From Candidatus Micrarchaeota archaeon (GTDB lineage Archaea > Micrarchaeota > Micrarchaeia > Norongarragalinales > UBA8480): 64,000 nucleotides of DNA. Position numbers and translations under genes: made by a program. The DNA lies in contig JAZDHP010000005.1 of assembly GCA_043805855.1 (NCBI GenBank), positions 1,132 to 65,131 of the forward strand, given 5' to 3'. This document shows positions 5,482 to 62,278 of this stretch, piece after piece; positions within the stretch are counted from its first letter, which is position 1; each line of letters opens with the position of its first letter. Under the pieces are notes generated by a model. That model had not been told where the DNA came from. It saw nothing but the letters and a program-made list of their open reading frames with translations, and did not search any database.

Positions 5482-6378
5482 TCACTTTCTTCTCGGGAAA
5501 CGCAGTTCAGTGAAAAGCACTTTTCCAACGCGAGTTTCTTTAAAGCGATTTAAATTAGTTCTTGCAGTTTGTTCAACTATTCTACGCGGTTTTGACTTTT
5601 TGAAATCTGCAAATGCCTGTTTATCTGCAGTGTGTTCCATCAAGTGAGAAAATGCCAGGTAAGGTCCTTGCTTTTGCACAACTTTTTCAGTGAGGGTGAA
5701 AAGTTCCCCCATTCGCGCTAGTATTTTTTTCTTTTGTGCTTCTGATTTTCCGCGAAGTAAGCTCGAGAACTGGCGCCCTAGGGCAACTAGTTCCGCGGGA
5801 TAAATTACCCCTTCAGCGTGTGCTTTGTGCAACGTAACGATTAAACCCGGATTTTTTCTAAGTAACCCCACATAAGTCATTCCCGTGCTTTGAAGCCCAA
5901 CAATGGATTGGTCAACATTTGCTTTAGCTGGAGATAAATCTAGTTGTGTTTTAGGAAGTTGAGTTGTTCCGCTAAATAATTTACTCATCGCCACGTAAAA
6001 TTTGCTTTTTGTAGCTAGGGCAAGGGCTTGTTGGCTAGCTGTGGCTGAAGTTAAAGTGTCAATAGCTTTCGCGTATCGTTTTGCACCTAGATGCTTTTGA
6101 GCATTTAAAAAAACCGCGTCAAGCTGTTGGAGCACTGCTGGTTTTTTCTCAGCTGGTAGACGCGCAAATAAGTTAGCAAAGTTTCTCCCAACCTCTAGCA
6201 ATTCCGCGTCAGTTACGTTGCCAGTTCGATGCGCATTGTGTAAACCAACTAAAAAACTAGGGTCGCGCCTCAGCAAGCCGTGATACGGCATTTTGATTCT
6301 TGCAAAATTTTCAACGGCACTTTTAACCTCGGCAGCAGTTGGTTTTTTCAATTGAACAATAGCCACTAGTGAAAACAC
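5482..6378 (-). CDS. Hypothetical protein with two internal copies of the 'HG(W/L)L' module
   Basis: 298 aa. Internal repeat MPYHGLLRRDPSFLVGLHNAHRTGNVTDAELLEVGRNFANLFARL versus MTYVGLLRKNPGLIVTLHKAHAEGVIYPAELVALGRQFSSLLRGK. Confidence 0.6.
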   Translation of the reverse strand: MFSLVAIVQLKKPTAAEVKSAVENFARIKMPYHGLLRRDPSFLVGLHNAHRTGNVTDAELLEVGRNFANLFARLPAEKKPAVLQQLDAVFLNAQKHLGAKRYAKAIDTLTSATASQQALALATKSKFYVAMSKLFSGTTQLPKTQLDLSPAKANVDQSIVGLQSTGMTYVGLLRKNPGLIVTLHKAHAEGVIYPAELVALGRQFSSLLRGKSEAQKKKILARMGELFTLTEKVVQKQGPYLAFSHLMEHTADKQAFADFKKSKPRRIVEQTARTNLNRFKETRVGKVLFTELRFPRRK

Positions 6379-7108: not shown

Positions 7109-8125
7109 TTAAGGTCTTTCTCTTTCTTTTACCGCCTCAATGGGCTTTTCTAATAAACGTAAATCACATGATTTATTGCGACCAATTACAAACCTTCTCT
7201 CTTTACGCGGGTCAAATGTAAACTCCATATTTGCTGTTGCCCCTATTATCCCTCCAACAAGTGTAACTTTTCTCGGAGAAGCGCGTTTAATTACAAATAT
7301 ATTATGCCCAACACCAAAAGCGTGCCCTTGAGCTAGTTGATACAACGCCCCAACCCAACCACGTCCTTGGCTAGGATCAGACGGAAAAGATTCTTCGACC
7401 GTTTGGCCATCCTTAGTGAGTTTAAAAGTTTCTACTTTTGAATTCCACTTAAATACTGGGGTAAACCCAATTGACGCCTCTAGCCTTTTAGGCTGGGGTT
7501 TAGTATGCAAGTCTCTTACAAAAATTGCGCCGTCTTTGAAAAATACTTCAGCGTGGCGTGGCGAAACAATTGCGTTATCAGCGTGGACAACCGTATTTTT
7601 TCTCATTTCTCGATTTTCACGATAAGCACTAACGGCGGAAAGTATTGCTCTTGAGCCTCTTACAATTGGAGAACGTCGGAATTCAATTAATTTCTTTGCT
7701 GAATGAAGAATTAGCGCTCTTGGCTGGCGTGGTGCGCTAGACACGGCTGTCACTATTGGCAGTTCATCTGTACCGCTAAACCATTCTTGTTCTAACACCT
7801 CTGGTCCAATAAGCTCCGCTGTTCTTTGCAGTAAACGAACAGTAACTTCTCCAATATCGTGAACTCCAACCATAGTTGTTGCATGTGAAAGTGTCTTGGC
7901 AAACGCTTGCTTAGCTTTTTGTCGCTGTACTTCTGGCAGTTTGTCAAGTGTTTCAAAGTAAGTACCTAAACGCAGCAAATTTAAATGAGATACTTGTTTA
8001 GCTTGAGCTGCTTTTGCAAGAGCAGTATATAGTACATCTCCTTTTCCACGTAGCCAGCCGTAGCGTTTCATTTTAAGCCGTTTATAAACCTCTTCAGCTT
8101 CGTGTGGAGAAAATGCTTCAGACAT
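7109..8125 (-). CDS. FHA-domain protein with N-terminal RHGWL-type module
   Basis: 338 aa. N-terminus MKRYGWLRGKGDVLYTAL...LLRLGTYFETLD matches the module of family B. The FHA-like core is IVRGSRAILSAV...NAIVSPRHAEVFFKDGAIFVRDLHTKP, and a second degenerate RFVIGRNKSCDLRL sits at the C-terminus. Confidence 0.55.
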   Translation of the reverse strand: MSEAFSPHEAEEVYKRLKMKRYGWLRGKGDVLYTALAKAAQAKQVSHLNLLRLGTYFETLDKLPEVQRQKAKQAFAKTLSHATTMVGVHDIGEVTVRLLQRTAELIGPEVLEQEWFSGTDELPIVTAVSSAPRQPRALILHSAKKLIEFRRSPIVRGSRAILSAVSAYRENREMRKNTVVHADNAIVSPRHAEVFFKDGAIFVRDLHTKPQPKRLEASIGFTPVFKWNSKVETFKLTKDGQTVEESFPSDPSQGRGWVGALYQLAQGHAFGVGHNIFVIKRASPRKVTLVGGIIGATANMEFTFDPRKERRFVIGRNKSCDLRLLEKPIEAVKERERP

Positions 8126-9265
8126 ACTAATAAAATAGATAAATTACTATTTAACAATATGCACACGGCGCAACGAGTTAGAGAAGTAATAGAACGCCAA
8201 CAGTACGATGATTTGCTATTTTGGAAAAACCCGCTTTTGTTGCGAGAAAAGGGCAGATTAGCAAAAGGCGCAGAAGTGCACGGCAGCGCGTTGTCAATTC
8301 ACAATAAAGGTATAATTATAAGTGGCAAATCTGAATCTGGAAAAACAACAACTTGGTTTAATCTATTGCGCCACGGCGGCAAAGCAATAAGTGAAGATTT
8401 AACAAACTTAGTTTTCACTCCAAGCGCTGCGTTATTGATCTCTCCTGGTACGCGCCATGCATTTAGAATACACGGCAAATATCACCGCAGGTACACGAGT
8501 CAACCTGCGTATGGCGAAGTTGGACAAATGAAAAGCGGCGGCATTATTCCAAAATATATAGAGGCGCCTATGGACCCAACTGCACAGCAAACTGGAAGAC
8601 CGTTACACGCAGTGTTCTATATTGAAAAACAGCGCCTGCACCCTCGCGCCTATCCTCGCGTCGTTTTAATGGACGAAAATAAACTAGTTCACCATTTTCA
8701 AAGTGAAGATACTTCAACTTTTCCCTCTTCGTTCGACTTACCGGAAACGCACACCCGCGAATCAATACGTAGATTAAGCTGGAAAAGAAAAGAAGAAATA
8801 GCGCAGCGTGTGGTGCAACAGTTAAGAAAAGTAGGCGTGAATTTCTTTCAAGTTTACGTTCCAGAAACTAAAGAAGCTAAAAAACAAGCGTTAACTGCAA
8901 CGGCAATATCTAAATTTGCTAGAGGTTTTGTAGGTGGCTTTAAACCTGGGCTAAATTTACTTGCAATTAGTCACGAACATTCAGGCAAAGTTTTTCCAAT
9001 ATCTCGTTCAACAGTTATTGGAACAGCTGGAGACATTCGCTTAAAAGAAGATAAAACAATTGCCAGTAGGCACACTGCGTTTGAAAAAATAAAAGGCAAA
9101 TGGACTGCACGCGATTTAGGTACAAAAGCGCACACGCACATATTGAAAAAAGAACGCGTTGAAGCAGGTAAAGTTGACTGGCGCCGCTTGAAAGGCACAA
9201 TGGAAATTCAAGATGGGGATTTACTTGCAATTGGACACACATTTGTTCAAGTTGTCATAAAATAA
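8102..9265 (+). CDS. HprK-fold P-loop kinase-like domain fused to a C-terminal FHA domain
   Basis: 387 aa. HGSALSIHNKGIIISGKSESGKTTTWFNLLRHGGKAISEDLTNLVF aligns to the HPr kinase C-terminal P-loop (LHG.L....G.GVLI.G.SG.GKS..A..L...G..LV.DD). The C-terminus IGTAGDIRLKEDKTIASRHTAFEKIKGKWTARDLGTKAHTHI...DGDLLAIGHTFVQV is FHA-like. The annotated start overlaps the divergent gene by 24 nt, so the real start may be the Met at 8159. Confidence 0.55.
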   Translation: MWRKCFRHTNKIDKLLFNNMHTAQRVREVIERQQYDDLLFWKNPLLLREKGRLAKGAEVHGSALSIHNKGIIISGKSESGKTTTWFNLLRHGGKAISEDLTNLVFTPSAALLISPGTRHAFRIHGKYHRRYTSQPAYGEVGQMKSGGIIPKYIEAPMDPTAQQTGRPLHAVFYIEKQRLHPRAYPRVVLMDENKLVHHFQSEDTSTFPSSFDLPETHTRESIRRLSWKRKEEIAQRVVQQLRKVGVNFFQVYVPETKEAKKQALTATAISKFARGFVGGFKPGLNLLAISHEHSGKVFPISRSTVIGTAGDIRLKEDKTIASRHTAFEKIKGKWTARDLGTKAHTHILKKERVEAGKVDWRRLKGTMEIQDGDLLAIGHTFVQVVIK

Positions 9266-10112: not shown

Positions 10113-11366
10113 TTAACTTTTTTCCATTATGCGCGCAATTGCTTCAGCTGCGGCAGCGCGGTTGTCAAATGGCGTTCCGTGGCGTACGTCGCGCGATGGC
10201 TTTACAACTGGAATTTCTTTCGGGTCTGGCGGAACACGTACACTATAGAACCTTACCCCTTTTTGCGCTAGTTTAGAAACAACTAATTGTGAAAGTGCAA
10301 GTCGCTGTTCTTCATTTAGTTTAGTTTTAAGTGGATAAGTTTGCGGATATCCAAAGACTGTTGGAACGCCAACATCGTCTCGCTTTGCAAGGTAACGTGC
10401 CACGTGTTCTGCATTAACTTCAACAACTGCAGTTGACGGTGCAGCGTGAGTTTCCATGAGAAAAACCGCGTTGAGACGTGCTGGATTTACATTATCATGC
10501 AGTGGCGCGTTTTTAACTGACGGCACTGGCTTTCCTTTGAATATAATTTCAGGGTCCGACCCGTGTTTCCAAAAAGTTTCCTTTACCTCGCGCGGAAAAT
10601 CAGGAGAATCTGGAGAACCAAAAACTCCTTGGTGAAACATCCGTCCTCTTGAATAATATTGACTTGCCGCGCGGAATCCATATTTTCTATAGGGCCCGAC
10701 GACGTTTGCCCCTTTGGTTGAAAAAAGTATATGTACTCGGTCATCAGCGATTATTGAGCACCCGTGTAGATAACTAAGCAGAAAAGATAACCTACCTTTG
10801 CCAATTCGGGGATCTCCAATTAAAGCAAAGGCGCCTTTTTTTCCACACAGTACGTTACCGTGCAGCTCTGCGCCGGTTCTTCCAACTACGTTTTCTTTTT
10901 TCAAAGTGTGCTCTGGATCTTTGTGATAGTGAGTACCGTAAGCTTCTGGGTCAAAAAATTGCTGCTTATTAATTAATCTAGTTAAAGCAGTTGAAACGGA
11001 GCCAAGGTTAGCTTCGGGAACGTCAGAAATTCCCTGCATGGCTATTGGCGTTGCACTTTTTTGTAAATGGTGAAGGTCATCTAGCAATAAACTAGCAGCT
11101 AGAGCTGGATTTTGTTCAACTACTCTAGCGTGAGTTGCGACAAGTGGCAAAACATGTTGACGTACAAAATGATCTCCACGTGCATGGTAAAGCCCTAGAA
11201 TAGCATCGTTTATTCCTTTTACTGTTTTTGCAGCGTCTTCATTTTTTGAACCAATATCTGCAAGGCGAATGGCCATTCGGTCTCCACCGTGGCGCAGTAA
11301 GCCATAGGCGCGGATTCCATTTTTTTCAAACCACATTTTTGCATGTTCCATTTTTTCTATTGTCAT
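10113..11366 (-). CDS. HprK-fold P-loop kinase-like protein with N-terminal HG(L)L module
   Basis: 417 aa. LHGNVLCGKKGAFALIGDPRIGKGRLSFLLSYLHGCSIIADDRVHI aligns position-by-position to the HprK C-domain (degenerate Walker A, GKG). The N-terminus RAYGLLRHGGDRMAIRLADIG resembles the repeats of the 5482 protein. Confidence 0.5.
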   Translation of the reverse strand: MTIEKMEHAKMWFEKNGIRAYGLLRHGGDRMAIRLADIGSKNEDAAKTVKGINDAILGLYHARGDHFVRQHVLPLVATHARVVEQNPALAASLLLDDLHHLQKSATPIAMQGISDVPEANLGSVSTALTRLINKQQFFDPEAYGTHYHKDPEHTLKKENVVGRTGAELHGNVLCGKKGAFALIGDPRIGKGRLSFLLSYLHGCSIIADDRVHILFSTKGANVVGPYRKYGFRAASQYYSRGRMFHQGVFGSPDSPDFPREVKETFWKHGSDPEIIFKGKPVPSVKNAPLHDNVNPARLNAVFLMETHAAPSTAVVEVNAEHVARYLAKRDDVGVPTVFGYPQTYPLKTKLNEEQRLALSQLVVSKLAQKGVRFYSVRVPPDPKEIPVVKPSRDVRHGTPFDNRAAAAEAIARIMEKS

Positions 11367-29231: not shown

Positions 29232-29639
29232 TTGGTAACTTTTCAAATGGCTGAAACAAAACGTAGACTCGCTAAACCCAAATTACCAAGAACATTGGCG
29301 CTAGACGAACCAAGCGAATTCGAAAAAGTATTAGACGCAGCTAGGTATTTTGAAAGACACCGTGTGTTTAGCCACAGCTTACTAACTACACATCCACAAT
29401 TAGCAGTTGCAATACACGAAGCAGCTATGCGTAAAAGAATCAAAACCGCGCATCTACTCGAACTTGGAAAACACTTTTTTGATTTATCCCAACACGAAGA
29501 ACAAATTCACGAAATTCTCGCAACAGCAGAAAACAAAATAGTACAAGGGAAAAAAACACCTGCAGTGTTTAAGGAGATGCGCGAAGCAATTAGCCAACTT
29601 CACAAAAAGCACAGCCATCCAGCTAGAACCTGGTGCTAA
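29232..29639 (+). CDS. Small protein carrying a degenerate RH...LxxLGxHF module
   Basis: 135 aa. RHRVFSHSLLTTHPQLAVAIHEAAM...LLELGKHFFDLSQHEEQ parallels RHGWLPGPLKKAI...LREIGNHFVTISDVQ. Confidence 0.45.
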   Translation: MVTFQMAETKRRLAKPKLPRTLALDEPSEFEKVLDAARYFERHRVFSHSLLTTHPQLAVAIHEAAMRKRIKTAHLLELGKHFFDLSQHEEQIHEILATAENKIVQGKKTPAVFKEMREAISQLHKKHSHPARTWC

Positions 29640-32719: not shown

Positions 32720-33123
32720 CTAAGTTGAGCACAATGGCCGAACAACTTGAAAAGCCGTGGCACTTGAAAGCTGCAGAAAGTTTAGGCCGCAGCGTAACGC
32801 CTCTATTTTCTGGAAAAGGCAAGTTAAAAGGACATGTAGCTACGTCGCCGGCGTTTGCGCCCTATTCAATTAGTTTTGTTGTGGATAGCAGACATCCTAA
32901 AGCGCAAGTGGTTAAAATAATCAACGGACGCAGCAAACGCGCGTATGTTTCAATTTATCCTGATGGCAGATTTGGTTCTTTAGCGCAGGGCACTCTTGGA
33001 ATAAGAACTTTAGCTGAATTTACAAGAGCAGCGCCTAAATCAAAGTTACTTAGGGACGTCCCGCAGTTAATCGCAGCTGCGAGAGCGGCGAACAAAGCTT
33101 TAAAGCAACACGCGCCCAAATAA
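32704..33123 (+). CDS. Small conserved hypothetical, tandem paralog 1 (PWHLKAA...ALKQHAPK)
   Basis: 139 aa. Aligns end-to-end with 33128..33511. Confidence 0.55.
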   Translation: MAKKIAKLSTMAEQLEKPWHLKAAESLGRSVTPLFSGKGKLKGHVATSPAFAPYSISFVVDSRHPKAQVVKIINGRSKRAYVSIYPDGRFGSLAQGTLGIRTLAEFTRAAPKSKLLRDVPQLIAAARAANKALKQHAPK

Positions 33124-33127
33124 AATT

Positions 33128-33511
33128 ATGGCTGAAGAACCTTGGCATTTGAAAGCTGCTAGAAGTTTAAACGGTGCAGTGAAGCCGTTGCTTATACAAG
33201 ACCGCCGAGTTTATGGTCACAGTGTAGCATTATCTGAACAACCAGTGTACACTGTTAATTTTGCTGATGGAAAAACTAACGGAGTAGAAGGTGCAAAAAT
33301 TCAAAAAGTACACTTAGGGGTATCCAAACGGCTATTAACAGTTACAAGAAATGGCAAGATAAACTGTCGCGTACCGAAATTAACTGGAATAAAGACATTA
33401 GCTGCGTTGAAAAAAGTTGACCCTAGAAAAACTAGTTTGCATGACTTGCCTATTTTAATTAAAATTGCAACTGCAGCGCACGAAGCGTTGAAAGCACATC
33501 AGCCAAAGTGA
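33128..33511 (+). CDS. Small conserved hypothetical, tandem paralog 2
   Basis: 127 aa. EEPWHLKAARSL...LIKIATAAHEALKAHQPK. Confidence 0.55.
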   Translation: MAEEPWHLKAARSLNGAVKPLLIQDRRVYGHSVALSEQPVYTVNFADGKTNGVEGAKIQKVHLGVSKRLLTVTRNGKINCRVPKLTGIKTLAALKKVDPRKTSLHDLPILIKIATAAHEALKAHQPK

Positions 33512-34335: not shown

Positions 34336-36423
34336 ATGCCAGTGAAGAAGGAAGTTAAGGGGCTTTACAGCGGAGACAAGCCAACAAAGCAGTACGCTGA
34401 AAAACCGCGCGTCGACTGGTTTGTTAAGTTCGTCAACTTTTCCAACAAATATTTCGACAGTCTTGGAAAAGGCGCGAAGTTAACTAAAGAACAGCGGGAA
34501 GTTTTTGAATTTCTAAACTATAGAATTACTGGCGAGCAGTTCCGCGCAGCTGAAATCGCCGCAATGTTTTTGGGTTTATTCGTAACTATTTTTGCAGTTC
34601 TCGTACTTGCAATTATTTTCGGAACAGGCAGCCCGCTCTTCTTGATAGGTTCGTTGCTGTGCTTTATGGCGCCATTAGCGGCGTTTATGCTAGTTGCATT
34701 TCACCCGCAGCAAGAGGCAAAACGCGAGCAAACAATGGCGCTTGGTTACCTTTCAGAAATTGTTAACTACATGGTTGCTAGTATGCGACTTACTCCCAAC
34801 TTGGAAAAGGCCGTTGAGTTCACTGCATCGCATGGCCGCGGTAAAATCGCGGAGGACATGAAAAAGTTAATTTGGGACGTGCAAATTGGAAAATATTTAT
34901 CAGTTGAAGAGGGGCTTGACGACTTAGCGTACCGCTGGGGAAAGTACAACGAGGATTTCAAGCAAGCGCTGATGTTAATTCGCTCGAGTTTACTTGAGTC
35001 CGACGACGCAAAGCGCGAAATACTCCTAGAAAAAGCATCGGCCGATGTTCTTGAAGGCAGTAAGGAAAAGATGGACCAGTTCGCTCGCGCGCTATCGCAG
35101 CCAACTGTATATTTGTATTACTTTGGCGTGTTGCTACCGCTAATGCTCGCAATTGTGCTGCCAATTGGCGGAACGCTTTCAGGCGGCGATTTTCCACTAG
35201 CTCGTCCAGAGATACTTGCTTTGATTTACATTGTTGCGCTGCCAATTGGAATTTACTTCCTTGGGATTAACATCTTGGGCAACAGGCCGCCGACGTACAT
35301 TGCGCCTGACATTAAAGAAGATTACCCCGGGCTTCCAGCAAAAGGAACAATGAGAATTCTCGGCGCCGAACTTCCAGTTTTGCCAATTGCGTTGCTCGTA
35401 CTAATAGCTGTACTTGGCGCTGGTTTTTACCTAGATCAAATAATTACAGTTGCACCGCTAGAGCTTTACGAAAAAGCTGAAGCGCTAGCTGCGATGCCAC
35501 ACATTGAACTTTTTGGGGTACCGCCATCTGAACTATTTCTAGGACTATTTTCGCTATTAGGAGTAGTTGTTGGGCTCGGTTTTGCAATTTCAATTTACTT
35601 GTACGGCACTTACATCGCTAGGAAGAAAGTGCAAGATGAAATCCGCGCAATGGAGCGGGAGTTTAAAGACGCGATTTACGTTCTGGCAAGTCGACTTGGT
35701 GAGAACCGTCCGCTTGAAGACGCGTTGAAGTATGCAGTTGCGTTTCTTCCAAACAGTAAAGTTGCAAGTAAAGTTTTTAGAAAGATTCTCGACAATGTAA
35801 CAACAATGGGAATGACAATAGACGAAGCTGTGTTTAACCCGCAGTTTGGAGCGTTGAAAAACTTACCGTCAAAAACAATTCAAAGCGGAATGCGAATTAC
35901 AATTGACTCAATTGGACTCGGGGTAAACGTTGCGGCAAAGTCGCTCATTGGCTTAGCTTTACAGTTGAGAAACAGTGAAAAAATTGACTTACTTTTGAAC
36001 AACTTACTATCAAGCGTTACTCAGATGTTAAAAACAATGGGCACTTTCATCGCGCCAATCGTGCTGGGAGTAGTGACGAGTTTACAAGGAGTAATTGTAA
36101 AGGCAATGTCTTCAAACTGCGCTGACACACCAGCAACTTCAACTTCACCTGGCGTTTCGGGTTTTGGTGGCGCGAGTAATTTAAGTTCAATGTTCTGCAG
36201 TAAAACCGGCGAAGCAAATAGTTCAACTGACCCCGCTACGTTTACATTCATAATGGGAATATACGTACTTGAAGTCGTGATTCTACTTACTTATTTCAAC
36301 TCGCAAGTTGAAGACTCAAATAACAAGTTACACACGTACATTGAAATTGCAAAGGCGCTTCCAATCGCTACACTTATATTTGCCGCAGTGGCGTATTTTG
36401 CAGGGACAAGCATAGGCGTATAA
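34336..36423 (+). CDS. Polytopic membrane platform protein, TadC/FlaJ (T2SS-F)-like
   Basis: 695 aa with at least 8 hydrophobic helices in two blocks separated by soluble helical domains. Sits directly downstream of the ATPase and upstream of the pilin genes. Assignment is by architecture and context, with no diagnostic motif. Confidence 0.6.
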   Translation: MPVKKEVKGLYSGDKPTKQYAEKPRVDWFVKFVNFSNKYFDSLGKGAKLTKEQREVFEFLNYRITGEQFRAAEIAAMFLGLFVTIFAVLVLAIIFGTGSPLFLIGSLLCFMAPLAAFMLVAFHPQQEAKREQTMALGYLSEIVNYMVASMRLTPNLEKAVEFTASHGRGKIAEDMKKLIWDVQIGKYLSVEEGLDDLAYRWGKYNEDFKQALMLIRSSLLESDDAKREILLEKASADVLEGSKEKMDQFARALSQPTVYLYYFGVLLPLMLAIVLPIGGTLSGGDFPLARPEILALIYIVALPIGIYFLGINILGNRPPTYIAPDIKEDYPGLPAKGTMRILGAELPVLPIALLVLIAVLGAGFYLDQIITVAPLELYEKAEALAAMPHIELFGVPPSELFLGLFSLLGVVVGLGFAISIYLYGTYIARKKVQDEIRAMEREFKDAIYVLASRLGENRPLEDALKYAVAFLPNSKVASKVFRKILDNVTTMGMTIDEAVFNPQFGALKNLPSKTIQSGMRITIDSIGLGVNVAAKSLIGLALQLRNSEKIDLLLNNLLSSVTQMLKTMGTFIAPIVLGVVTSLQGVIVKAMSSNCADTPATSTSPGVSGFGGASNLSSMFCSKTGEANSSTDPATFTFIMGIYVLEVVILLTYFNSQVEDSNNKLHTYIEIAKALPIATLIFAAVAYFAGTSIGV

Positions 36424-40025: not shown

Positions 40026-41099
40026 ATGGCTAAAGAAGAATTGGAAAAGGCAAGGAAAGCACTAGAAAAAATGCCTAGACACGGCTGGCTGCCTGTACCT
40101 TTGAAAATAGCGCTTTGCAAAAGTCACCTGGATGGCGAAATAACTTCAGCTGAATTAAATTCACTCGGGGAACACTTTGTCACTATTGAAGACCCAAAAG
40201 ACGCGCAAGACATGTTGAAAAGCGCAACTGAACAATTACAAACCACTAACGCCAGAGTTGTGTTTTTAAATTTACATAGAGAAGCTGAAAAACTTGCCCT
40301 TCAAGTTAAAGCAATTAAAAACGCACCAGCTAATGATAGACTTTTCGTTGAAACAGTTGACCGCGATTCAAGACAAAAGTTAGAAATTCTCCCGCTAGAT
40401 TTACTTAATGAACTTAAAGCTGGGTTTGCTGAAAAAAAGCTAGATAAACTCGAGCTTGAAAACGCACGCTACGCGACTAACTTTTTCATTACCTTAGCAA
40501 GGGTAATTCCAAGCCCCTCAACCGCCGCGAAAATCCCCCCCACTTGGAGAAACGCAGTAACCGCAATTGCAAATAAAACAATGGAAATTCCCGAAGTTGA
40601 AGGTAAAGCTAGATACTTACACCGCGCGTTAACTTACATTGCCTATTGCGAAAAAGATTTACCTTTTTGGCACCGGCCTTTGACTCCTCAAGATGCAGTA
40701 CATATTGAAAACTTTGCAAAAGCACAAACCGCGCGGCTTGGAACACGGCACATTTCACCAACTACTTTAAGTGAATTACTTTACGTAAAAGGAATTAAAC
40801 CAAGGGACAAATATGGCCGCACAATTAAACTAAATGGTAGAATGACTTTGAAACATGCAGATATATTTAAACGAGAAATTGAACGTAGGCTTGACCCAAT
40901 TCACTTTAAAGTGCGAGTTGCACAAACTACATTAGAACCAAAGGCAAAAAGAAACATAGAAGTAACCGCACTTAGCTCAGAAGGCGACGATTTCTTAAGT
41001 GAAATAAAAACCCCAATATATCGAAGAAGGGTGGCTTTAACATTTAAAAAAATTACTAGACCTTTGTGGCCAAGGGCAAAAAGAGCAGAATTTAATTAA
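40026..41099 (+). CDS. Paralog family B member 1 (RHGWL module at N-terminus)
   Basis: 357 aa. KMPRHGWLPVPLKIAL...LNSLGEHFVTIEDPKDAQ, and C-terminal LDPIHF. Confidence 0.65.
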   Translation: MAKEELEKARKALEKMPRHGWLPVPLKIALCKSHLDGEITSAELNSLGEHFVTIEDPKDAQDMLKSATEQLQTTNARVVFLNLHREAEKLALQVKAIKNAPANDRLFVETVDRDSRQKLEILPLDLLNELKAGFAEKKLDKLELENARYATNFFITLARVIPSPSTAAKIPPTWRNAVTAIANKTMEIPEVEGKARYLHRALTYIAYCEKDLPFWHRPLTPQDAVHIENFAKAQTARLGTRHISPTTLSELLYVKGIKPRDKYGRTIKLNGRMTLKHADIFKREIERRLDPIHFKVRVAQTTLEPKAKRNIEVTALSSEGDDFLSEIKTPIYRRRVALTFKKITRPLWPRAKRAEFN

Positions 41100-41130
41100 T
41101 AAAAAGCAACAAATAAACTGGTGAAAAACA

Positions 41131-42468
41131 ATGGCAGAAAAAGCAACACCCCTTGAAGAATATTTCGGGTCGATGTCGCGTCATGGTTGGCTTCCTGGCC
41201 CGTTGAAAAAGGCTATTTTCCGCGATTTAGCTGGCAGGCCAGGAACGGCAAAAACGCTACGCGAAATTGGCAACCACTTTGTAACAATAAGCGACGTACA
41301 ACGCGCTCAACCAACAATCACACGAGCAACCCAAATGCTAGCAACACACGGCGCACAAAAAGCGCTACAACACCTGCTAACCGAAACAAAAAAACTAGCG
41401 GCAACTATTCCTTCCCCATTGCCAACTGCAGCTTCAACTGTCAACGCAACAGCAACACGTGCTGCAGCAGCTAAAATTCCACGGCCAAGCGAAAGTCCAA
41501 CTGAACCAACAACAGCTAGAATTCCTAGACCTGGAAATAACCCGCCAGAGTCAAAATCTCTTGTTGGCGGGGTTTCAGTTGTGGAGCTTGAAAAAATAAA
41601 ACCAGTTAGACGTGAAATTCCAATTACAACAGTAGCATATCAAGTTGTACCGTTTGGACAAGAACCTTGGTTCTTGCATGAAACTGAAGCACCAAAGCCA
41701 AAGCTATTACACCAAGCACAACCTTATGCACATGCACTATACCTGCGAGACACGCGCCCAGAAGCACAAGCAACTTTAGAACAATATTTACCAGCACCGC
41801 TATTAGATGAAATTAAAACAGCATATGCCCGCGGTTTGCTTGATAGAAAACTACACGAACCAGGCGATGAATACCACGAAAACGTTTTTCACGAAATAGC
41901 TGACTACTTAGATTATGGCAGTCATAACTCAAACACTTCAAACCATAAACCGCAATGGACTGCCTTATTGCACGCCGTTCTACAGCGAGTTGATAGACAA
42001 AGAAGCACGCGGCACAAAGTAGATTATCTACTTAGCGCATTGAACCGCACGGCTGCAACTGCCAACTTAGAAAACCCATTTGAACTTGGCCTTATAGAAG
42101 CTTTAACAAAAGCGCATGAAAAAGAACTAGGCGTTAGAGGCAAACACATTTCGTCATACGATTTACGCTACTTACTCTACGACGAAGGGTATGCCGTAGC
42201 ACCCCGCAGTGAAGCAGCTAGCATTTCAATCAAACATCCACTAAACACAAAAACTAACCGAATAACAGCGGCGCAATTACAAACTCATCTAGACCCAGTA
42301 CATTTTAGCATACAACGAAATGGGAGAAATGAAGTTTCAATACACGCCAACACAATGGAAGGCGTCGCGTTTATAGATCGAATGGAACTACTGAGAGGAA
42401 AAAGCTTAAGTTTAAGACGCCGCGTAGCTCGCTTGGGCAAAATGGCAAGTCTAAAATTCGGCAAGTAA
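41131..42468 (+). CDS. Paralog family B member 2
   Basis: 445 aa. MSRHGWLPGPLKKAIFRDL...TLREIGNHFVTISDVQRAQP...THGAQKALQHLL, then a Pro-rich linker. The first ~250 nt are near-identical to 49767..50951. Confidence 0.7.
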   Translation: MAEKATPLEEYFGSMSRHGWLPGPLKKAIFRDLAGRPGTAKTLREIGNHFVTISDVQRAQPTITRATQMLATHGAQKALQHLLTETKKLAATIPSPLPTAASTVNATATRAAAAKIPRPSESPTEPTTARIPRPGNNPPESKSLVGGVSVVELEKIKPVRREIPITTVAYQVVPFGQEPWFLHETEAPKPKLLHQAQPYAHALYLRDTRPEAQATLEQYLPAPLLDEIKTAYARGLLDRKLHEPGDEYHENVFHEIADYLDYGSHNSNTSNHKPQWTALLHAVLQRVDRQRSTRHKVDYLLSALNRTAATANLENPFELGLIEALTKAHEKELGVRGKHISSYDLRYLLYDEGYAVAPRSEAASISIKHPLNTKTNRITAAQLQTHLDPVHFSIQRNGRNEVSIHANTMEGVAFIDRMELLRGKSLSLRRRVARLGKMASLKFGK

Positions 42469-44893: not shown

Positions 44894-47800
44894 ATGAATT
44901 TAAAAGGCAATTTAAGCGCATTTTTCATAATTATATTTACTCTTGAAATCTTCTCTCCATTAGCGTTCGCTTATACTCCGCTTCCACTTGGTTCGCCAGC
45001 AACAACAATACCAACTACAATTGGCTCGCGTTACAACGTTCCTGGCCAGTGTGAAGTTAATGAAATGACTCCCGAACAAGTGCAACTATTCTGGATACAA
45101 ACGCAGAACTTCCGCGGCGACCAAATTAACTCAAAAACAGACGAGGCGTTAATGACTACAAAACCATCTGGAACTACGATTAATTTAAACGTCAATAATT
45201 TTCCAGCTGACTCTGGCGAAAAAGTCCATCCATTTGTAGATATTGCACGGTTATTAGGCCTAGATGAAAAAAAGAGAAAAGAAGCAGCGCAGTTTCTTGG
45301 AAAAAGAGAAACAGATCGGATAAGCAACAAAGAAGCGCATCAACTTGCAAAGAAATATGAAAAAAACGAAGGTGAGTTCGGCACTTTGTTAGATGCTTTC
45401 CGCGGAACTGCAAGTGAAGAGAGTCCTGCTTATGAAAGCTATAAGTTGAAAACTAATGGCGGCGGCGAAATTCCTTCAACTGCATTGCAAGGCAAGACGC
45501 CAATTGACGAGTGTATAATTAACAACGCGCACGTGCAAGGCAAAGCTTCTTACGTTGTGTCAACTTCCAAAGACGTTGCAATTGCAGCTGACAGTTCCCA
45601 AACTCAAAGCGAAAAAGTAAACTTTTTACATTCAACTAACACGCTTGGCAGTTTAGACTTGCAAGGCGCAAGCACGTTGATAATACCAAAGCACTATAAG
45701 GAACTTGTAACTAGATTAAAAAAATGGCTAGCAGCTGACTTATTAGCTTCAATTGGGCAAACTACTGTTTTCTTTGGTGAAAAAAATGCACTTAGCAAAA
45801 GCCAAGAGAAGCTAAAGGAAATTGTAGAACGCAAAAGAGACTTTGGTTTAGACCAAATCGCTTTTAGCCGCATTCAAGACAGCCCACTGAAACTGGAAGT
45901 TTATGGACTCGGGAGTAGGCTAAGCGTTACAAAAAGCGAGCTACAACAGTCTGTTGAAAAAATGCAACTTAATTTCATACGAATGCATGCGGGAAACGTA
46001 GAAATCACAGACGACGTCATTGCGCGGTTAAACACAGACCCGCAGTTTGCAACGCGTTATAATTCATTGCAAAAAATTCAAAATGAACTTGAAAGTGCTA
46101 CGTCACTTAAACCAACTGACCCTGCAGATGATATTTATCAAAAGTATAAAAATGACCTTCACGGAGTAGCAGGAATAAATGACGCCGATCAAATTGAAAT
46201 TCAAAATGCGCAAGAACGATTAAGGACAAATCAAGATTATGTTAAAACACTTAATGATTTAAATGGAAAAACTTACAAAGCTGATCTAGAAAAGGTTAAA
46301 AGAAAACTGGCAGGTAGAACTGGGGAGTCTTGGTTTCGTTTAGCAATGGGAATGGCGTGGCTTGGACCTGGCCGCTTTGTGTTTGAATTAGCTGATGGCG
46401 TTGACTTTGTTCCAATTTCAAACAAGGCATTTGCAGAAAACTACGTTACAATAATGGCAGATAATACCGACTTAGCGGGAGAATTCAGGCGAGCAACAAA
46501 CTGGGTGTTATCTGGAACAGTTACTGACATGCTTTCAGATGCAACTGGCGAAGGCATTCCAACTGCAGCGTACCGCGTTGGGAATTTAATTATAGTTAAC
46601 AACCCAGTTGAAGATCAGACGGTAACCGGCACTTCAGTTACTAGCTTACAAAACAACGGCGGCAAATGGAACATAGGCACAGAATGGAAAGGAAAGTCAG
46701 ATGCATTAGTTGCAGAACAGCTAACAACTGAAAATGAATACGCTCGCTTGCCAATGGAAGTAAAAGGACAAGCTTGGAATTTGAAAATAAGGGCAAGGCA
46801 AGAATTTTCTACTTTTTATGACACAATGATATACCTAGCGCCGCTACTAAGTTGGCGAATACTAGGCGCAACAGATTATGCTGTAACAATTTTTAGAGTA
46901 GCAGTTTATGACTTTTACGTTACAGATTTTGTTAACCCTGCCGCGTTTAAGAAAGACGAAGTTTGCTCAGATGAAGAAATTGACAAATATGTAAATTGGT
47001 ATATGGGAGCAACTTTGGTAAACCAAGGCTTAGGTTGGGCGCCAATCTTAACCCCCTGGTTTAAAGGACTCAGTACAGTTACAAAAGTAAGCGCTGCTCT
47101 AAACAGCAAGACGAAGATTTTTACAGGGCCATTTATTGATAAATACGTAAAGTCAATAGGAAAGGTGCTTGACCCAGTTACCTTAGCACAGATGTACATT
47201 GCAGGTGAAGCATTGGACTACGCTTCAAATTGCAAGGACGACCAGTATACTATTTTAGCATACCAGCAGTTAAAGAAAAAGAGCGCAGCTACAATTTCAG
47301 ACAGATTACAGTCAATTGGAGGTAGTGATTTCTTAAGCAAGTTAAACGTCGGACAAGCAGTAAAGGGAGTTGGCCAGCAAGTTGACACAGCTACAATGTC
47401 TGAATACGTTAACTTCCGAGCTGTTTTGGAAAACCAAGTTTCTTCAATAACTGCAGATGAAATTTACTTCCTGCACTTTAAAGGCGATTCAATAGAATGG
47501 ATTAACAACATAAAAACAAACACGGCACAACCAGAAATGTGCCAACGCGAGTGCCTTGACAGTAAAACTAAAGTTTGCTGTAGAGATGCAACTGGAACCG
47601 AATGCACAGATAAAGCAACCGGCGTAAAAACACAAATAGCCGGCAAAGAAAGAAGTTTAATGGCAAAAAGATTTACCAACTTAGCGTTGGTTTTAACTCC
47701 AAACAAGTACATTTCAACTTCGCTTGGCGGCTGCCCCGGAAATATTTTACAAATTGACAGTAGTAAAAACATTCAATTAACAAGCGGTACAACTTGCACC

Positions 47801-48958
47801 GGCGGAACGTGCATCTTGAATCAATTACAGTATTTAACCGGCAGGCAAGTGAACAGTGACTTGACAAGCGTGCTTGGAAAAGTTACTGGAATTTACACTA
47901 CTAGCGGTTCAGTTCAAATTTCAGATGGAGCAATTAGGTTCAACCCGAGCGAAGCAATTAATGACCAAATGGAAATAAGAAGCCCAGGCGCAGGCGTAAT
48001 ACAAACCGCAAGTTCAAGCGAAGAGTTGGCTTACAAACAAGCAGCGATGCTTGCAATTGACAACAACGGCGGCGTTACACTCAGCGGTTACATTACTTCT
48101 AAATCACCTGAACAAGTGCCAGCCGGCGAACTTATAACAATAATGACCGAACGCGGTCGCATAAACTATATGGGCGGCGGGAGAGTACAAATATTCTTAC
48201 ACACACTAGCACAGGGAGACGCTGGTTTGATAAATGGATTTACAACAATGCCAGTTCAATACAACCAATGCCCCGGCTACAACGCACCTGGAATAAAAAT
48301 ATCTAATTTACAGGGATACGCTGGCCCCGGCGACCAAGTTGCCGCACAGTTAAACGCAGCTTTACAACAAATTCAAGGCTGTAACGGAATGCAAGTGCTT
48401 GAAACAAAAGATAAGAAAATAATGTTCGGAACAAACGCAAACGGAGAACCAGTTTTGAGAATTATTGACAAAAACACAGGAGAAGTTACCGAAGCGCGTA
48501 TAAATGGTCCAATTCGCCGAGAGGGTAACGAAATTATAGTTCCAACTGACAAGGGAGAATTTAGGTTCAATATAGGAATGGGCGAAAACGGCCAGCCAAT
48601 GCTTTCACTAACAGGACCAAACGGGTTACAAGAAAATGGCCCATTGTTAAGAGCAAATGGACTTGGCGGCATGTTAGTTTTTGACCCGGCAACAGGACAA
48701 TGGCATGTGTTAAACGGCCAAGATTTGGCAATGAACGACAACTTTGCAAAGTACGGCACATCATACGGCCGCGATACAAAAGGAAACTTCGTCGGCTCAC
48801 CTGGAGCAGACTTCCTGTCACCTTCATCTAAAAGAGTTTCAACAAGCGGCAACTCACTCGCTTCGCTACCTTCATGGCCAGAGGAATCGCCAATTTTGCT
48901 AGTAGTTATTGTACTTACGTTGTTAGCCGTTGCGTTTGTACGCTGGAGAAAAGTTTAA
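44894..48958 (+). CDS. Large secreted protein (1354 aa) with N-terminal signal peptide and C-terminal motif-TM-basic tail (sortase-type sorting-signal architecture)
   Basis: N-terminus MNLKGNLSAFFIIIFTLEIFSPLAFAYTP. C-terminus ...SLASLPSWPEESPILLVVIVLTLLAVAFVRWRKV-stop. Confidence 0.75.
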   Translation: MNLKGNLSAFFIIIFTLEIFSPLAFAYTPLPLGSPATTIPTTIGSRYNVPGQCEVNEMTPEQVQLFWIQTQNFRGDQINSKTDEALMTTKPSGTTINLNVNNFPADSGEKVHPFVDIARLLGLDEKKRKEAAQFLGKRETDRISNKEAHQLAKKYEKNEGEFGTLLDAFRGTASEESPAYESYKLKTNGGGEIPSTALQGKTPIDECIINNAHVQGKASYVVSTSKDVAIAADSSQTQSEKVNFLHSTNTLGSLDLQGASTLIIPKHYKELVTRLKKWLAADLLASIGQTTVFFGEKNALSKSQEKLKEIVERKRDFGLDQIAFSRIQDSPLKLEVYGLGSRLSVTKSELQQSVEKMQLNFIRMHAGNVEITDDVIARLNTDPQFATRYNSLQKIQNELESATSLKPTDPADDIYQKYKNDLHGVAGINDADQIEIQNAQERLRTNQDYVKTLNDLNGKTYKADLEKVKRKLAGRTGESWFRLAMGMAWLGPGRFVFELADGVDFVPISNKAFAENYVTIMADNTDLAGEFRRATNWVLSGTVTDMLSDATGEGIPTAAYRVGNLIIVNNPVEDQTVTGTSVTSLQNNGGKWNIGTEWKGKSDALVAEQLTTENEYARLPMEVKGQAWNLKIRARQEFSTFYDTMIYLAPLLSWRILGATDYAVTIFRVAVYDFYVTDFVNPAAFKKDEVCSDEEIDKYVNWYMGATLVNQGLGWAPILTPWFKGLSTVTKVSAALNSKTKIFTGPFIDKYVKSIGKVLDPVTLAQMYIAGEALDYASNCKDDQYTILAYQQLKKKSAATISDRLQSIGGSDFLSKLNVGQAVKGVGQQVDTATMSEYVNFRAVLENQVSSITADEIYFLHFKGDSIEWINNIKTNTAQPEMCQRECLDSKTKVCCRDATGTECTDKATGVKTQIAGKERSLMAKRFTNLALVLTPNKYISTSLGGCPGNILQIDSSKNIQLTSGTTCTGGTCILNQLQYLTGRQVNSDLTSVLGKVTGIYTTSGSVQISDGAIRFNPSEAINDQMEIRSPGAGVIQTASSSEELAYKQAAMLAIDNNGGVTLSGYITSKSPEQVPAGELITIMTERGRINYMGGGRVQIFLHTLAQGDAGLINGFTTMPVQYNQCPGYNAPGIKISNLQGYAGPGDQVAAQLNAALQQIQGCNGMQVLETKDKKIMFGTNANGEPVLRIIDKNTGEVTEARINGPIRREGNEIIVPTDKGEFRFNIGMGENGQPMLSLTGPNGLQENGPLLRANGLGGMLVFDPATGQWHVLNGQDLAMNDNFAKYGTSYGRDTKGNFVGSPGADFLSPSSKRVSTSGNSLASLPSWPEESPILLVVIVLTLLAVAFVRWRKV

Positions 48959-49766: not shown

Positions 49767-50951
49767 ATGGCAACTGTTGAAACTCCTGAAAGTAGATTTT
49801 TTGCGCCGATGTCTAGGCATGGTTGGCTTCCTGGCGCGTTTAAAACCGCGATTCATCGCGATCTTGGCAAAAAGCCGGAAACGGCACAAACGCTACGCGA
49901 AATTGGCAACCACTTTGTAACAATAAGCAACGTACAACTCGCCAAACCAGCAATTGAACAAGCAACCCAAACGCTCAAAACACACGGCGCACAAAAAGCA
50001 CTACAACACTTATTGAGAGAAGCTAAGCGTATTGCAACTGAATCACAACCTGTTGCTCCGAAAAGAGTTCTGCGTCCTCCAAAACCCCCGGCTTCTTCAA
50101 GCGCAACTGGAGAAAGATTATCACAAGACCCTGCGGTACCAATAGCCGAAAGCGACATAGTTGAAGCTACTTCTATTCCAATTCCACGCGGTCCACCTAG
50201 ACCTGGAGAAAAACCGCCCGCGCCTGACCGCGCTTTAAAAGTACCGCAACGCGCTTTTGACGAACGCTTACTTTCGTTCAGAATTTCTGCAATTGACCAC
50301 CAAACTCTTCAAGGCGCATTGCCAAAGCAGTTACTTGAAGAAATTATAAAAGAGGATATAACAGGTTTTAGATTAAAGAACATCGCAGACAATGTACGCA
50401 GGGCAACAACCGCCACTCCTTTAATTGAACGTAGCTTTAGAACCACACTAGGCGCAGTTGTTTTGCGAACAGAAACTTTAAAGACACCTGCAGAAAAGCT
50501 TACGCACTTAAAACAACAAATTGAAACTCTAGCAACTTGGGCACAGCACTATGCAGATAACAGAAAAATTCACCCGTACGCACTTGATGCGCTCACACAA
50601 GCACATGGAAAGAGACTCGGCTCAAAAACACACGTTACGCCAGAAACACTTGCAAGTGACTTACAAGCAGATGGACTGAAATACAACTGCGTTTCAGAAC
50701 CAGGCACTGAAAGTATCTTAATCTCACCAAACTCAATCAAAGCCAGACGGAACAAAACTTCTCTAATCGCTGCAGTTGTAGGCGAATTTGACCCAACGCA
50801 CTTTAATGCAACTCCGTATATGCTTAATTCAGACAAACTAATAGTTCTCCCAAGAACAGAACAAGCTAGAAAATTCTTAAGAGCAATTCCAAGACAGCCA
50901 ACCTGGAGAGAAAAACTAGCAAAAATCTTTACACGCAAAAAGAAAAAGTGA
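49767..50951 (+). CDS. Paralog family B member 3
   Basis: 394 aa. MSRHGWLPGAFKTAIHRDL...TLREIGNHFVTISNVQLAKP...THGAQKALQHLL, Pro-rich linker, C-terminal FDPTHF. Confidence 0.7.
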   Translation: MATVETPESRFFAPMSRHGWLPGAFKTAIHRDLGKKPETAQTLREIGNHFVTISNVQLAKPAIEQATQTLKTHGAQKALQHLLREAKRIATESQPVAPKRVLRPPKPPASSSATGERLSQDPAVPIAESDIVEATSIPIPRGPPRPGEKPPAPDRALKVPQRAFDERLLSFRISAIDHQTLQGALPKQLLEEIIKEDITGFRLKNIADNVRRATTATPLIERSFRTTLGAVVLRTETLKTPAEKLTHLKQQIETLATWAQHYADNRKIHPYALDALTQAHGKRLGSKTHVTPETLASDLQADGLKYNCVSEPGTESILISPNSIKARRNKTSLIAAVVGEFDPTHFNATPYMLNSDKLIVLPRTEQARKFLRAIPRQPTWREKLAKIFTRKKKK

Positions 50952-56600: not shown

Positions 56601-56811
56601 CCCAGGGTAGCTTGTCTGTCAGAAAGGACTCCCATTAACGGAGATGCCTTTGTTCGTTAAGCCCCACTTTCGTGTCTGCGTTCCATTTTGTTAAGAACAC
56701 AGTCAGGCCAGCATTTGTCTTTAACCCTCTACAGCGGATTTCTAACCCGCTTGAGCTGACCATTAGGCGCCTTTGTTATTTTTTCGAAGGCGTACCGCTT
56801 ACTGGCTTTCC

Positions 56812-62242: not shown

Positions 62243-62278
<36 letters not shown>

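Follow-up and report, generated by a model that had tools for sequence, protein, structure and literature searches.

The stretch of DNA analysed here, referred to as the window, comprises 64,000 nucleotides from a Candidatus Micrarchaeota archaeon and contains several copies of one small domain, hereafter the module. This NCBI label bears out the first-pass guess of a DPANN source. Three of its carriers, B1 to B3, are encoded on the forward strand. B1 (40026-41099, 357 amino acids) has the module at residues 8-90 (40047..40295); this copy was an HMM seed, reached 103 bits in the library search and was modelled by AF2 with a pLDDT of 96.1. In B2 (41131-42468, 445 amino acids) it spans residues 8-89 (41152..41397) and is followed by a Pro-rich linker and a B-family C-terminal domain, and in B3 (49767-50951, 394 amino acids) it again covers residues 8-89 (49788..50033), with 67-68% identity to the B2 copy. 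Also on the forward strand lies p135 (ORF 29232-29639; the NCBI version starts at 29247 and has 130 amino acids), a module-only protein with its copy at 29337..29600. The reverse strand encodes FHA338 (7109-8125, 338 amino acids), in which the module at residues 10-103 (7817..8098) precedes a C-terminal FHA-type region, as well as p298 (5482-6378), a protein with two tandem modules, the first at 6043..6318 (80.5 bits) and the second at 5632..5901 (73.1 bits). Finally, p417 (10113-11366, 417 amino acids) has a divergent N-terminal copy at 11058..11354 on the same strand. The first-pass annotation had assigned the recurrence to 40026-42468, an interval that holds only the copies of B1 and B2, while the remaining ones lie elsewhere in the window.

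The recurrence is readily recovered by profile searches. An HMM built from B1-B3 alone and compared with 623 six-frame ORFs retrieved FHA338 (E = 1.7e-4), p135 (9.4e-4) and p298 (3.7e-3), the next match having an E-value of 0.8. When one family at a time was left out of the model, FHA338 scored 31.7 bits, p135 35.4 and p298 37.8; a model lacking all B proteins returned B1 at 24.1 bits, B3 at 12.8 and B2 at only 4.9. As a control 12,460 shuffled ORFs were scored, the best of which reached 8.4-9.4 bits depending on the model. With left-out proteins at up to 37.8 bits against at most 9.4 for the best shuffle, the recurrence is real and well beyond chance. Seven copies in six proteins are secure, to which p417 probably adds an eighth copy and a seventh protein.

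By HMM alone the N-terminus of p417 stays below significance (9.8 bits, E = 0.03, versus 10.4 bits for the best shuffle). An hhalign comparison of the N-termini of the p417 family with a 50-sequence alignment of the module gives a probability of 92.7% (E = 4.3e-7, 93 columns). Moreover, the positional ortholog of p417 in a syntenic cluster, P0030, carries a clear module, and the kinase-like parts of the two proteins are homologous (E = 9e-10). A conserved neighbour in the cluster, p387 (8102..9265, forward strand), combines an HprK-like P-loop domain with FHA at the C-terminus and lacks the module. A weak match of about 10 bits, given by a small profile, vanished with a richer one and is not counted as a copy.

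The B proteins are related beyond the module. B1-B3 are full-length paralogs (BLASTP of B1 against B2: E = 2e-11 over 252 amino acids) that share a C-terminal domain of some 230 residues, which is weakly conserved and located approximately at 40383..41096 (forward strand) in B1, with counterparts at about 41713-42465 in B2 and 50259-50948 in B3. Its motifs are LP..LL.E.K, H[IV][ST]P..L and LDP.HF; it aligns with P0016, P0036, P0074 and P0028 and has no match in Pfam or the PDB. What had been described as variable C-terminal domains are thus homologous by BLASTP and alignment; the Pro-rich linkers ascribed to all three proteins are found in B2 and B3 but not in B1.

The module itself measures about 85-95 residues instead of the roughly 60 first proposed, and comprises a short N-terminal helix (a0), a loop with the conserved motif M-x-R-[YH]-G-[WFL]-L and, in the AF2 model, a compact four-helix bundle. 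Given the 50-sequence alignment, all five AF2 models were all-helical with pLDDT values of 94-96 and a pTM of 0.84; for the B2 copy, modelled from a seven-sequence alignment, the best model reached a pLDDT of 94.4 and the other four 58-75. Among 54 copies, the Arg of MxR is kept in 44, the His of 'ALH' in 42 and the Tyr/His in 43. The best structural matches of the model are closed four-helix bundles. Pfam and NCBIfam gave no matches; among 50 copies compared with Pfam at E ≤ 1 no family was hit by more than two, and none of the matches was to a catalytic family. Sequence and fold searches of the PDB returned nothing specific, in line with the first-pass impression that this is no recognised domain: the profile matches to STI1, a de novo designed protein and 1u61 (E = 0.007), obtained with the 7- and 50-sequence alignments, are at chance level. 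Nor did a literature search on Micrarchaeota or DPANN archaea with FHA, HPr kinase or pili yield a description of the module.

Two known types of helical domain deserve a closer comparison. The module's a1-a2-a3 hairpin resembles TPR_12-type repeats in its unit-like pattern 'A.H....G....L..LG..F..L' and in weak profile matches, which raises the question of whether it is a degenerate TPR-type repeat pair and thereby a member of the TPR superfamily. Of 79 library matches, 32 are long and multi-stretch, and the eight inspected, seven with Pfam and one by eye, are all TPR-repeat proteins matching profile positions of about 25-60; hhalign against a TPR_12-type repeat alignment yields 50.7% probability (E = 1.6e-4, 46 columns). 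However, no single repeat exceeds 17 bits, significance arises only by summing 3-13 repeats, just one of the 50 modules has a weak Pfam TPR match (E = 0.03), and the model shows a closed bundle whose N-terminal loop motif is specific to the family. Membership in the TPR superfamily therefore appears very improbable. The 32 long matches, repeat proteins whose scores add up from weak repeats, were excluded as family members, and the hhalign result is marginal.

The second comparison is with helix-turn-helix proteins, that is, a module that binds nucleic acid or another ligand in a regulatory role. By eye the stretch 'TLREIGNHFVTIS' is similar to sigma-70 region 4.2, the module has a basic median pI of 9.9 and a net charge of +5, and the B-family genes adjoin those of ScpA and a large SMC-sized protein. 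The charge was rejected as evidence for DNA binding, because a basic pI is general among the cytoplasmic proteins here (proteome median 9.5). Against this reading, Pfam HTH and sigma families are matched by none of the 50 copies, and the invariant Gly sits within helix a2 of the AF2 model and not in a turn, which departs from HTH geometry; closed bundles, not HTH folds, are the best structural matches. We regard such a binding role as improbable.

The kinase-like and FHA proteins suggest yet another possibility. p417 is HprK-like, but its Walker A motif (GDPRIGKG) is degenerate and it has no Pfam match. In p387 the Walker A motif is canonical (GKSESGKTT), and its Pfam matches fall just below the curated cut-offs, both for Hpr_kinase_C (E = 6.4e-6, 26.2 bits versus 33.3) and for FHA (E = 1e-3). 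P0030, in which the module is fused to an HprK-like P-loop domain, has a similar Hpr_kinase_C-type score of 26.3 bits and is related to p387 by BLASTP (E = 1e-20); an ortholog of p387 is present in L003. FHA338 matches Pfam FHA (PF00498) with 23.3 bits, above the cut-off of 20.7. As only residues 176-208 are matched and the 'F.IGR..S.DLRLL' element is found at the very end of the protein, its FHA domain is atypical; the orthologs P0048 and P0064 have the identical architecture. The link to kinase-like and FHA proteins noticed in the window is corroborated by these direct fusions in relatives, to an HprK-like domain, to FHA-type regions and also to PP2C (P0014, P0029 and P0038; PP2C 48 bits).

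With kinase, reader and phosphatase domains co-occurring with and fused to the module, the module could be their substrate: the HprK-like kinase would phosphorylate helix a2 at its N-cap Ser/Thr, a mark that FHA would read and PP2C erase, loosely as for HPr Ser46. This position is Ser or Thr in 28 of the 54 copies. A conservation of about 52% is, however, what is expected of an ordinary helix N-cap, and there is no further conserved Ser/Thr in these copies. A substrate domain fused alike to kinase, phosphatase and reader would also be unusual, and the module is all-alpha and not HPr-like, so that a phospho-acceptor role seems quite improbable.

How widely is the module distributed? Among 1.84 billion protein representatives, searched exhaustively, there were only 47 carriers, and all those traceable to a named genome belong to Micrarchaeota MAGs. 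A match labelled 'Pseudomonadota' (L013) turned out to be a chance pattern in a 46-residue ORF inside a glycosyltransferase gene on the opposite strand. Narrower scans gave nothing: a B2/B3/P0011 sub-alignment in GTDB representatives and JGI metagenomes, a FHA338/P0048 alignment in JGI metagenomes, and the module in viral contigs. A word-indexed protein search returned p135 itself only, although the collection includes the other window proteins, and is uninformative on distribution. The module is N-terminal in all carriers, its first copy starting by residue 37, so that the earlier description of it as always N-terminal or repeated extends to all carriers found. It is joined to about 20 different, unrelated C-terminal regions. 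In addition to the fusions mentioned above these include a Beta-lactamase2 domain (78 bits) behind a TM helix, a weak Bud32-like kinase, a methyltransferase and the B-family domain, while nine proteins are module-only and four tandem-only. The module is therefore a real, unannotated, confidently folded, narrowly distributed and promiscuously fused N-terminal domain.

The genomic context adds to this picture. The module proteins p417, FHA338 and p298 belong to a cluster that is syntenic in two other genomes and comprises genes for the giant protein, GT2, HprK-like, methyltransferase, HprK+FHA, FHA and tandem-module proteins. Each of the two counterparts has four module proteins, namely the methyltransferase, P0048, a 142-residue protein and P0010 in L003, and P0030 with three more in L004; P0008, P0009 and P0010 are tandem-module orthologs of p298. 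Neighbours in the window include a giant Ig-like surface protein and T2SSE/T2SSF pilus genes. The module is not limited to the phospho-signalling cluster, as it also occurs beside the pilus-like ATPase and ScpA and fused to a beta-lactamase-like domain. p135 is directly upstream of a T2SSE/FlaI-like (type IV pilus-like) ATPase gene (29836-32109), and the order LeuRS, module protein, ATPase is common to the window, L016 (P0013) and L015 (P0036). B3 is directly downstream of ScpA, a conserved placement for a module protein, and B1, B2 and P0016 directly follow pilin genes. Subtypes of the module group by orthologous architecture across genomes and not by neighbourhood: the modules in FHA338, p135 and p298 are each closest to the orthologous copies of other genomes, and B2/B3 are the only recent paralogs.

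DPANN archaea depend on host contact, and a constant N-terminal domain in front of about 20 C-terminal regions, encoded next to pilin genes and, in three genomes, directly upstream of a T2SSE ATPase, might be a trafficking or targeting domain that marks variable cargo for an export machine such as the adjacent T2SSE/T2SSF system. In polymorphic toxins and effectors such as LXG, a constant helical N-terminal domain is likewise combined with many alternative C-terminal domains, and the module is similarly conserved, helical, N-terminal and rich in C-terminal partners. Its partners differ, however, from fast-changing toxins: they are conserved, housekeeping-like FHA, PP2C and kinase-like proteins in stable synteny. 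Tandem-only and module-only proteins would be poor cargo, and both charge and TM topology suggest the cytoplasm. The module proteins have a pI of 9.7-10.4 like the cytoplasmic proteins here, in contrast to about 5 for the pilins and the giant surface protein. In P0012 the module is followed by a basic stretch and then a TM helix, and a module that precedes the TM helix in some carriers is left in the cytoplasm. A targeting role is thus unlikely, and from membrane-anchored fusion topology and protein charge a cytoplasmic location is likely. We consider the module best explained as a previously undescribed cytoplasmic domain family that is lineage-specific to Micrarchaeota.

For a small non-enzymatic domain that is N-terminal on many unrelated proteins, a shared docking handle, one of the roles proposed in the first-pass annotation, is the most likely role. 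We therefore favor, with about an even chance of being right, the interpretation that the module is a cytoplasmic protein-protein coupling adaptor specific to this lineage. We infer that it binds proteins, whether in a homotypic or heterotypic manner or through a peptide ligand. It would recruit the proteins that carry it to one shared partner or bring them together, among them the HprK-like kinase or pseudokinase, FHA, PP2C, methyltransferase, membrane-anchored beta-lactamase-like and B-family proteins, while proteins of one, two or three modules only, such as p135, p298 and their relatives, may be bridges or regulators. Some observations run against the adaptor interpretation. If adjacent copies simply paired homotypically, they would not be expected to group by ortholog, the conserved Arg, His and Tyr/His could belong to a site for a small ligand, phosphate or nucleic acid and not to a protein interface, the four-helix-bundle fold is generic and gives no functional indication by itself, and the module is present beyond the signalling cluster too.

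Adaptors with a four-helix bundle are among the closest known systems, examples being the DAXX helical bundle (PDB 5y18) and the FAT domain. So are effector-associated domains (EADs) and bacterial Death-like domains, described by Kaur, Burroughs, Iyer and Aravind (eLife 2020, PMC7159879) as the coupling adaptors of prokaryotic conflict and signalling systems: small, mostly all-alpha terminal domains that occur as duplicates in adjacent genes, joined to signalling or effector domains. None of the weak Pfam matches of the 50 copies is to an EAD or Death family, in a Pfam copy that we take to include the EAD families. The module is likewise small (about 90 residues), non-enzymatic, all-alpha and terminal, neighbouring genes encode copies that are joined to signalling or enzymatic domains differing from one gene to the next, and it shows lineage-specific paralog expansion with stand-alone and multi-copy forms. 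In contrast to these families it has no Pfam match and occurs in DPANN archaea, its neighbours are HprK-like, FHA, PP2C, GT2, methyltransferase, giant-surface-protein, pilus and ScpA genes and not MoxR-vWA, STAND or GAP1 NTPase, and copies in adjacent genes are not each other's closest relatives. On our best reading the module would work like EAD or Death-like domains, yet it is a member of neither family.

One may go further and picture the module as the assembly domain of an archaeal Death-domain-like network. Homotypic or heterotypic module-module contacts would then wire the HprK-like/FHA/PP2C phospho-signalling set to the type IV pilus-like apparatus, the giant surface adhesin cluster and chromosome-segregation genes of an ultra-small, symbiotic archaeon, and tandem and module-only proteins would bridge or inhibit in the manner of FADD/ASC and CARD-only proteins. 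This bolder version of the adaptor idea is speculative and, in our judgement, rather unlikely.

The genomes of DPANN archaea such as Micrarchaeota are tiny, about half of their genes are without known function, and we know of no account of how their host contact is regulated. Here, a new compact domain family, clearly delimited, modelled with confidence and occurring in about 20 architectures, links otherwise unconnected genes: kinase-like, FHA, PP2C, methyltransferase, membrane-anchored beta-lactamase-like, pilus-operon and ScpA-adjacent. Should the module be no more than a structural N-terminal cap, the practical gain would be confined to annotating 47 protein clusters better. As a coupling adaptor, it would give direct access to a signalling or assembly network of an uncultivated lineage, which could be mapped through this one small domain, and the logic of bacterial conflict systems and animal Death domains would extend to archaeal symbionts.

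An HMM built from the first 95 residues of the paralogous carriers B1, B2 and B3 alone retrieved three further proteins from a six-frame ORF set of the window (623 ORFs, minimum length 40 aa). These are the 338-aa module–FHA protein FHA338 (E 1.7e-4), the module-only protein p135 (E 9.4e-4) and the tandem-module protein p298 (E 3.7e-3), and no other ORF fell below E 0.8. The alignments agree with those drawn in the first-pass annotation. In a leave-one-family-out approach B1, FHA338, p135 and p298 still scored 24.1, 31.7, 35.4 and 37.8 bits, compared with a maximum of 8.4–9.4 bits among 12,460 shuffled ORFs; with all B proteins omitted, B3 reached 12.8 bits and B2 just 4.9 bits. Given these leave-out scores against the shuffled maximum, seven module copies in six proteins are secure, and the recurrence noticed by the first-pass annotation is thereby confirmed.

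That annotation had counted eight copies, the last at the N-terminus of the HprK-like protein p417. This region escaped a 7-copy profile (E 6), and with a 54-copy profile it scored 9.8 bits (E 0.03), under the best shuffle of 10.4 bits. Comparing the p417 family (p417 and its ortholog at locus L003 of another genome) with a 50-sequence module alignment by hhalign gave 92.7% probability (E 4.3e-7) over 93 collinear columns. Moreover, P0030, which occupies the p417 position in the syntenic cluster of another assembly, bears a 60-bit module before a homologous HprK-like domain. Based on the hhalign match and this syntenic position we accept p417 as a probable, divergent eighth copy, less certain than the other seven.

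The alignment of 54 copies defines a module of about 85–95 aa. It opens with a short helix in which an Ala and a Phe are conserved, and continues through the loop M-x-R-[YH]-G-[WFL]-L to a helix a1 ending in 'L.VALH'. This is followed by a Gly-containing loop, frequently with an N-capping Ser or Thr for the next helix, a2 ('L..LG..F..L', Gly invariant), and by two further helices with conserved Ala and Leu. From a 7-copy alignment one of the five AlphaFold2 models was good (pLDDT 94) and the remaining four were poor; with 50 sequences all five models reached pLDDT 94–96 (pTM 0.84).

Can this fold be traced to a known family? The module region of the window proteins has no Pfam or NCBIfam match at E<=1, no Pfam family was matched by more than two of 50 modules scanned singly, and profile searches against PDB sequences gave chance-level matches only. 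The earlier statement that the module corresponds to no recognised domain thus stands. A reading of 'TLREIGNHFVTIS' as a sigma-70 region-4-type helix-turn-helix found no support in the Pfam, NCBIfam and PDB searches, and the model places the invariant Gly inside a helix. A degenerate TPR pair has to be weighed as well, since the library search also returned 32 long proteins (563–1,627 aa). Each of the seven that were scanned combines TPR_12 repeats with CHAT or NB-ARC domains, and inspection by eye places an eighth, P0025, among TPR-repeat proteins as well. Their single stretches score at most 17 bits, significance arising from the sum of 3–13 repeats, and hhalign of the module against TPR_12-type repeats is marginal (50.7% probability, 46 columns). 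These proteins were therefore rejected as family members, and we read the resemblance as a local TPR-like hairpin pattern.

The search itself, an exhaustive HMMER run over 1.84 billion cluster representatives at E<=1e-3, yielded 79 proteins that separate cleanly into these 32 and 47 carriers. The latter, including the six window proteins, have one to three full-length matches of 25–97 bits each. B1, B2, B3, FHA338, p135 and p417 are each deposited as singleton clusters. Named module-bearing genomes are the Candidatus Micrarchaeota isolates nzgw33 (3 loci) and nzgw34 (5 loci). An apparent 'Pseudomonadota' carrier was rejected as a chance match inside another gene, and neither the viral contigs nor the JGI metagenomes, the latter searched with two sub-family queries, contained relatives. 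From the carriers, the isolate loci and these empty searches, the family is, as far as can be seen, rare and restricted to Micrarchaeota.

In all 47 carriers the first module begins within residues 1–37, and tandem-only proteins exist, in line with the description of the module as always N-terminal or repeated. What follows is diverse: BLAST separates the C-terminal regions into about 20 groups without similarity to one another. B1, B2, P0016, P0036 and P0074 have the B-family domain, and multi-sequence alignment adds B3 and P0028. PP2C phosphatases follow the module in P0014 and P0029 (46–48 bits) and, from C-terminal similarity, in P0038; Beta-lactamase2 domains follow a membrane helix in P0012 (78 bits) and, from C-terminal similarity, in P0041 and P0053. 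The noted link to kinase-like and FHA proteins is borne out by the HprK-like P-loop fusion P0030 and the FHA-type fusions FHA338, P0048 and P0064. There is also a weak Bud32-like kinase match in P0026 (E 0.002) and an HExxH-containing region, by eye, in P0079; numerous other C-terminal regions are of no recognised type. Nine proteins are module-only (85–150 aa) and four consist of two or three modules (p298, P0008–P0010). The methyltransferase of the L003 cluster bears a module (20 bits), that of the window does not.

Some carriers show further features. In FHA338 (7109–8125, minus strand) the FHA match spans just residues 176–208, and the usual opening element 'F.IGR..S.DLRLL' lies at the extreme C-terminus, as in its ortholog P0048, which suggests that the FHA domain of FHA338, P0048 and P0064 is circularly permuted or split. 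A basic C-terminal tail, L.[FLK]P[RK].[FH][RK]K, recurs among tandem-module and module-only proteins, for example 'TELRFPRRK' in p298 (5482–5560, minus), 'VKLPRFHKK' in P0010 and 'LTKPRSFRKS' in P0008, and 'IPRP' is repeated in the Pro-rich linkers of B2 (~41410–41610) and B3 (~50040–50250). Both motifs are candidate peptide ligands of the bundle.

Module genes lie in three conserved neighbourhoods. The first runs from a giant surface protein through a ~500-aa protein, a GT2, the HprK-like p417/P0030, a methyltransferase, the HprK-like+FHA protein p387, FHA338/P0048, a small protein and a tandem-module protein to YdjM. Its order is kept in the window, L003 and L004 (the downstream half of L004 being more divergent), with three to five module-bearing proteins per version. 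In the second, a module protein sits between LeuRS and the T2SSE ATPase in the window (p135), L016 (P0013) and L015 (P0036), and in both the window and the P0016 contig a B-family gene comes after the pilin genes. In the third, ScpA and a 1,345–1,354-aa protein adjoin a B-family gene in the window and L014. In two assemblies, moreover, a module–PP2C gene has a class II aminoacyl-tRNA synthetase gene as its neighbour. Module subtypes track orthologous positions across genomes, and the sole recent paralogs are B2 and B3 (67–68% identity).

Several neighbours merit a remark. The Walker A motif of p387 (8102–9265, plus) is a canonical GKSESGKTT, that of p417 (10113–11366, minus) GDPRIGKG and that of its L003 ortholog GDPRVGKG, a difference that suggests an active kinase paired with a pseudokinase. 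Between FHA338 and p298 a 232-aa protein (6382–7080, minus) has hydrophobic, possibly membrane-spanning stretches and a sub-threshold match (22.7 bits, cut-off 24.3) to CyanoTRADDas_TM, a TM domain described from bacterial Death/TRADD-N conflict systems; L003 has a 142-aa module-only protein at this position. The 1,354-aa protein (44894–48958, plus), directly upstream of ScpA and with its 1,345-aa counterpart near ScpA in L014, has no Pfam match at E<=1, SMC_N included, and could be an SMC-like protein that has diverged strongly.

The window, part of a 75,479-nt MAG contig (locus tags V1722_00xxx; NCBI: Candidatus Micrarchaeota archaeon), contains an archaeal rRNA operon, the LeuRS and ScpA genes and a 2,426-aa Ig-like surface protein. 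Its type IV pilus-like operon comprises the T2SSE ATPase (29836–32109, plus), a T2SSF-like membrane protein (34336–36423) and pilin-like genes reaching 39989. The 757-aa ATPase has no intein-family match; its counterparts in L015 and the P0016 contig are intein-bearing (934–1,258 aa), one with a LAGLIDADG domain. The operon also holds two small adjacent paralogs (32704–33123, 139 aa; 33128–33511, 127 aa; both plus) with a common 'EKPWHLKAA.SL', of which the one scanned had no Pfam match. A second lineage-specific family comprises four ~235-aa proteins (23518–24228, 28486–29193, 52914–53621 and 53627–54319, all plus) with almost identical N-termini (MAKVVLVWNEHPTEV.AG.H.R.VA) and a kept C-terminal 'S..IS.KIAAAIHER'; the two scanned had no Pfam match. 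The 23S and 16S rRNA genes (56452–60704 and 61332–63768, both minus) exceed their Rfam models by ~1.27 kb and ~0.96 kb. Three homing-endonuclease-like ORFs, by eye, lie inside their spans (58015–58575, 56954–57619, 62398–62931) and two further ones at 54706–55404 and 55952–56518. The over-long genes and internal ORFs are consistent with rRNA introns carrying homing endonucleases.

Where, then, does the module act? Predicted cytoplasmic proteins of the window are basic (pI 9–11, median 9.5) and pilins and surface proteins have pI ~5–6, a split usable as a rough localisation indicator for this organism. Module proteins, at pI 9.7–10.4, match the former, which suggests that they are cytoplasmic. 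The module has no signal peptide, and the beta-lactamase-like fusions place it ahead of a strongly basic stretch and then the membrane helix. Charge and topology speak against an export or targeting tag, the latter among the roles first proposed. A nucleic-acid or ligand binder might be argued from the basic charge, yet cytoplasmic proteins here are basic generally, so DNA binding on that ground was rejected. A phospho-acceptor domain, to be considered beside the kinase-like and phosphatase fusions, likewise faces specific counter-evidence of its own. Together with the degenerate TPR pair, these readings keep a low probability each.

The coupling adaptors of prokaryotic systems, effector-associated and Death-like domains, are thought to work through homotypic binding (PMC7159879). 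Like them, the module is small, all-alpha, non-enzymatic and terminal, is duplicated over neighbouring genes, is fused to varied signalling and enzymatic domains, and has domain-only and tandem forms. It matches neither family in sequence, however, their core NTPases are not among its associates, and copies in adjacent genes are not mutual closest relatives; judged by these features, it is not a member of them. Because the pattern matches the coupling-adaptor definition we favour a protein–protein coupling domain, at roughly even odds. The analysis establishes that the domain exists, with its limits, fold model, distribution, architectures and synteny; that it binds, and what, we infer. The interpretation offered in the first-pass annotation is partly supported, and the recurrence on which it was built now extends beyond the window. 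The module represents a new domain family whose logic is of a familiar kind, a useful and moderately interesting addition for a poorly understood archaeal lineage.
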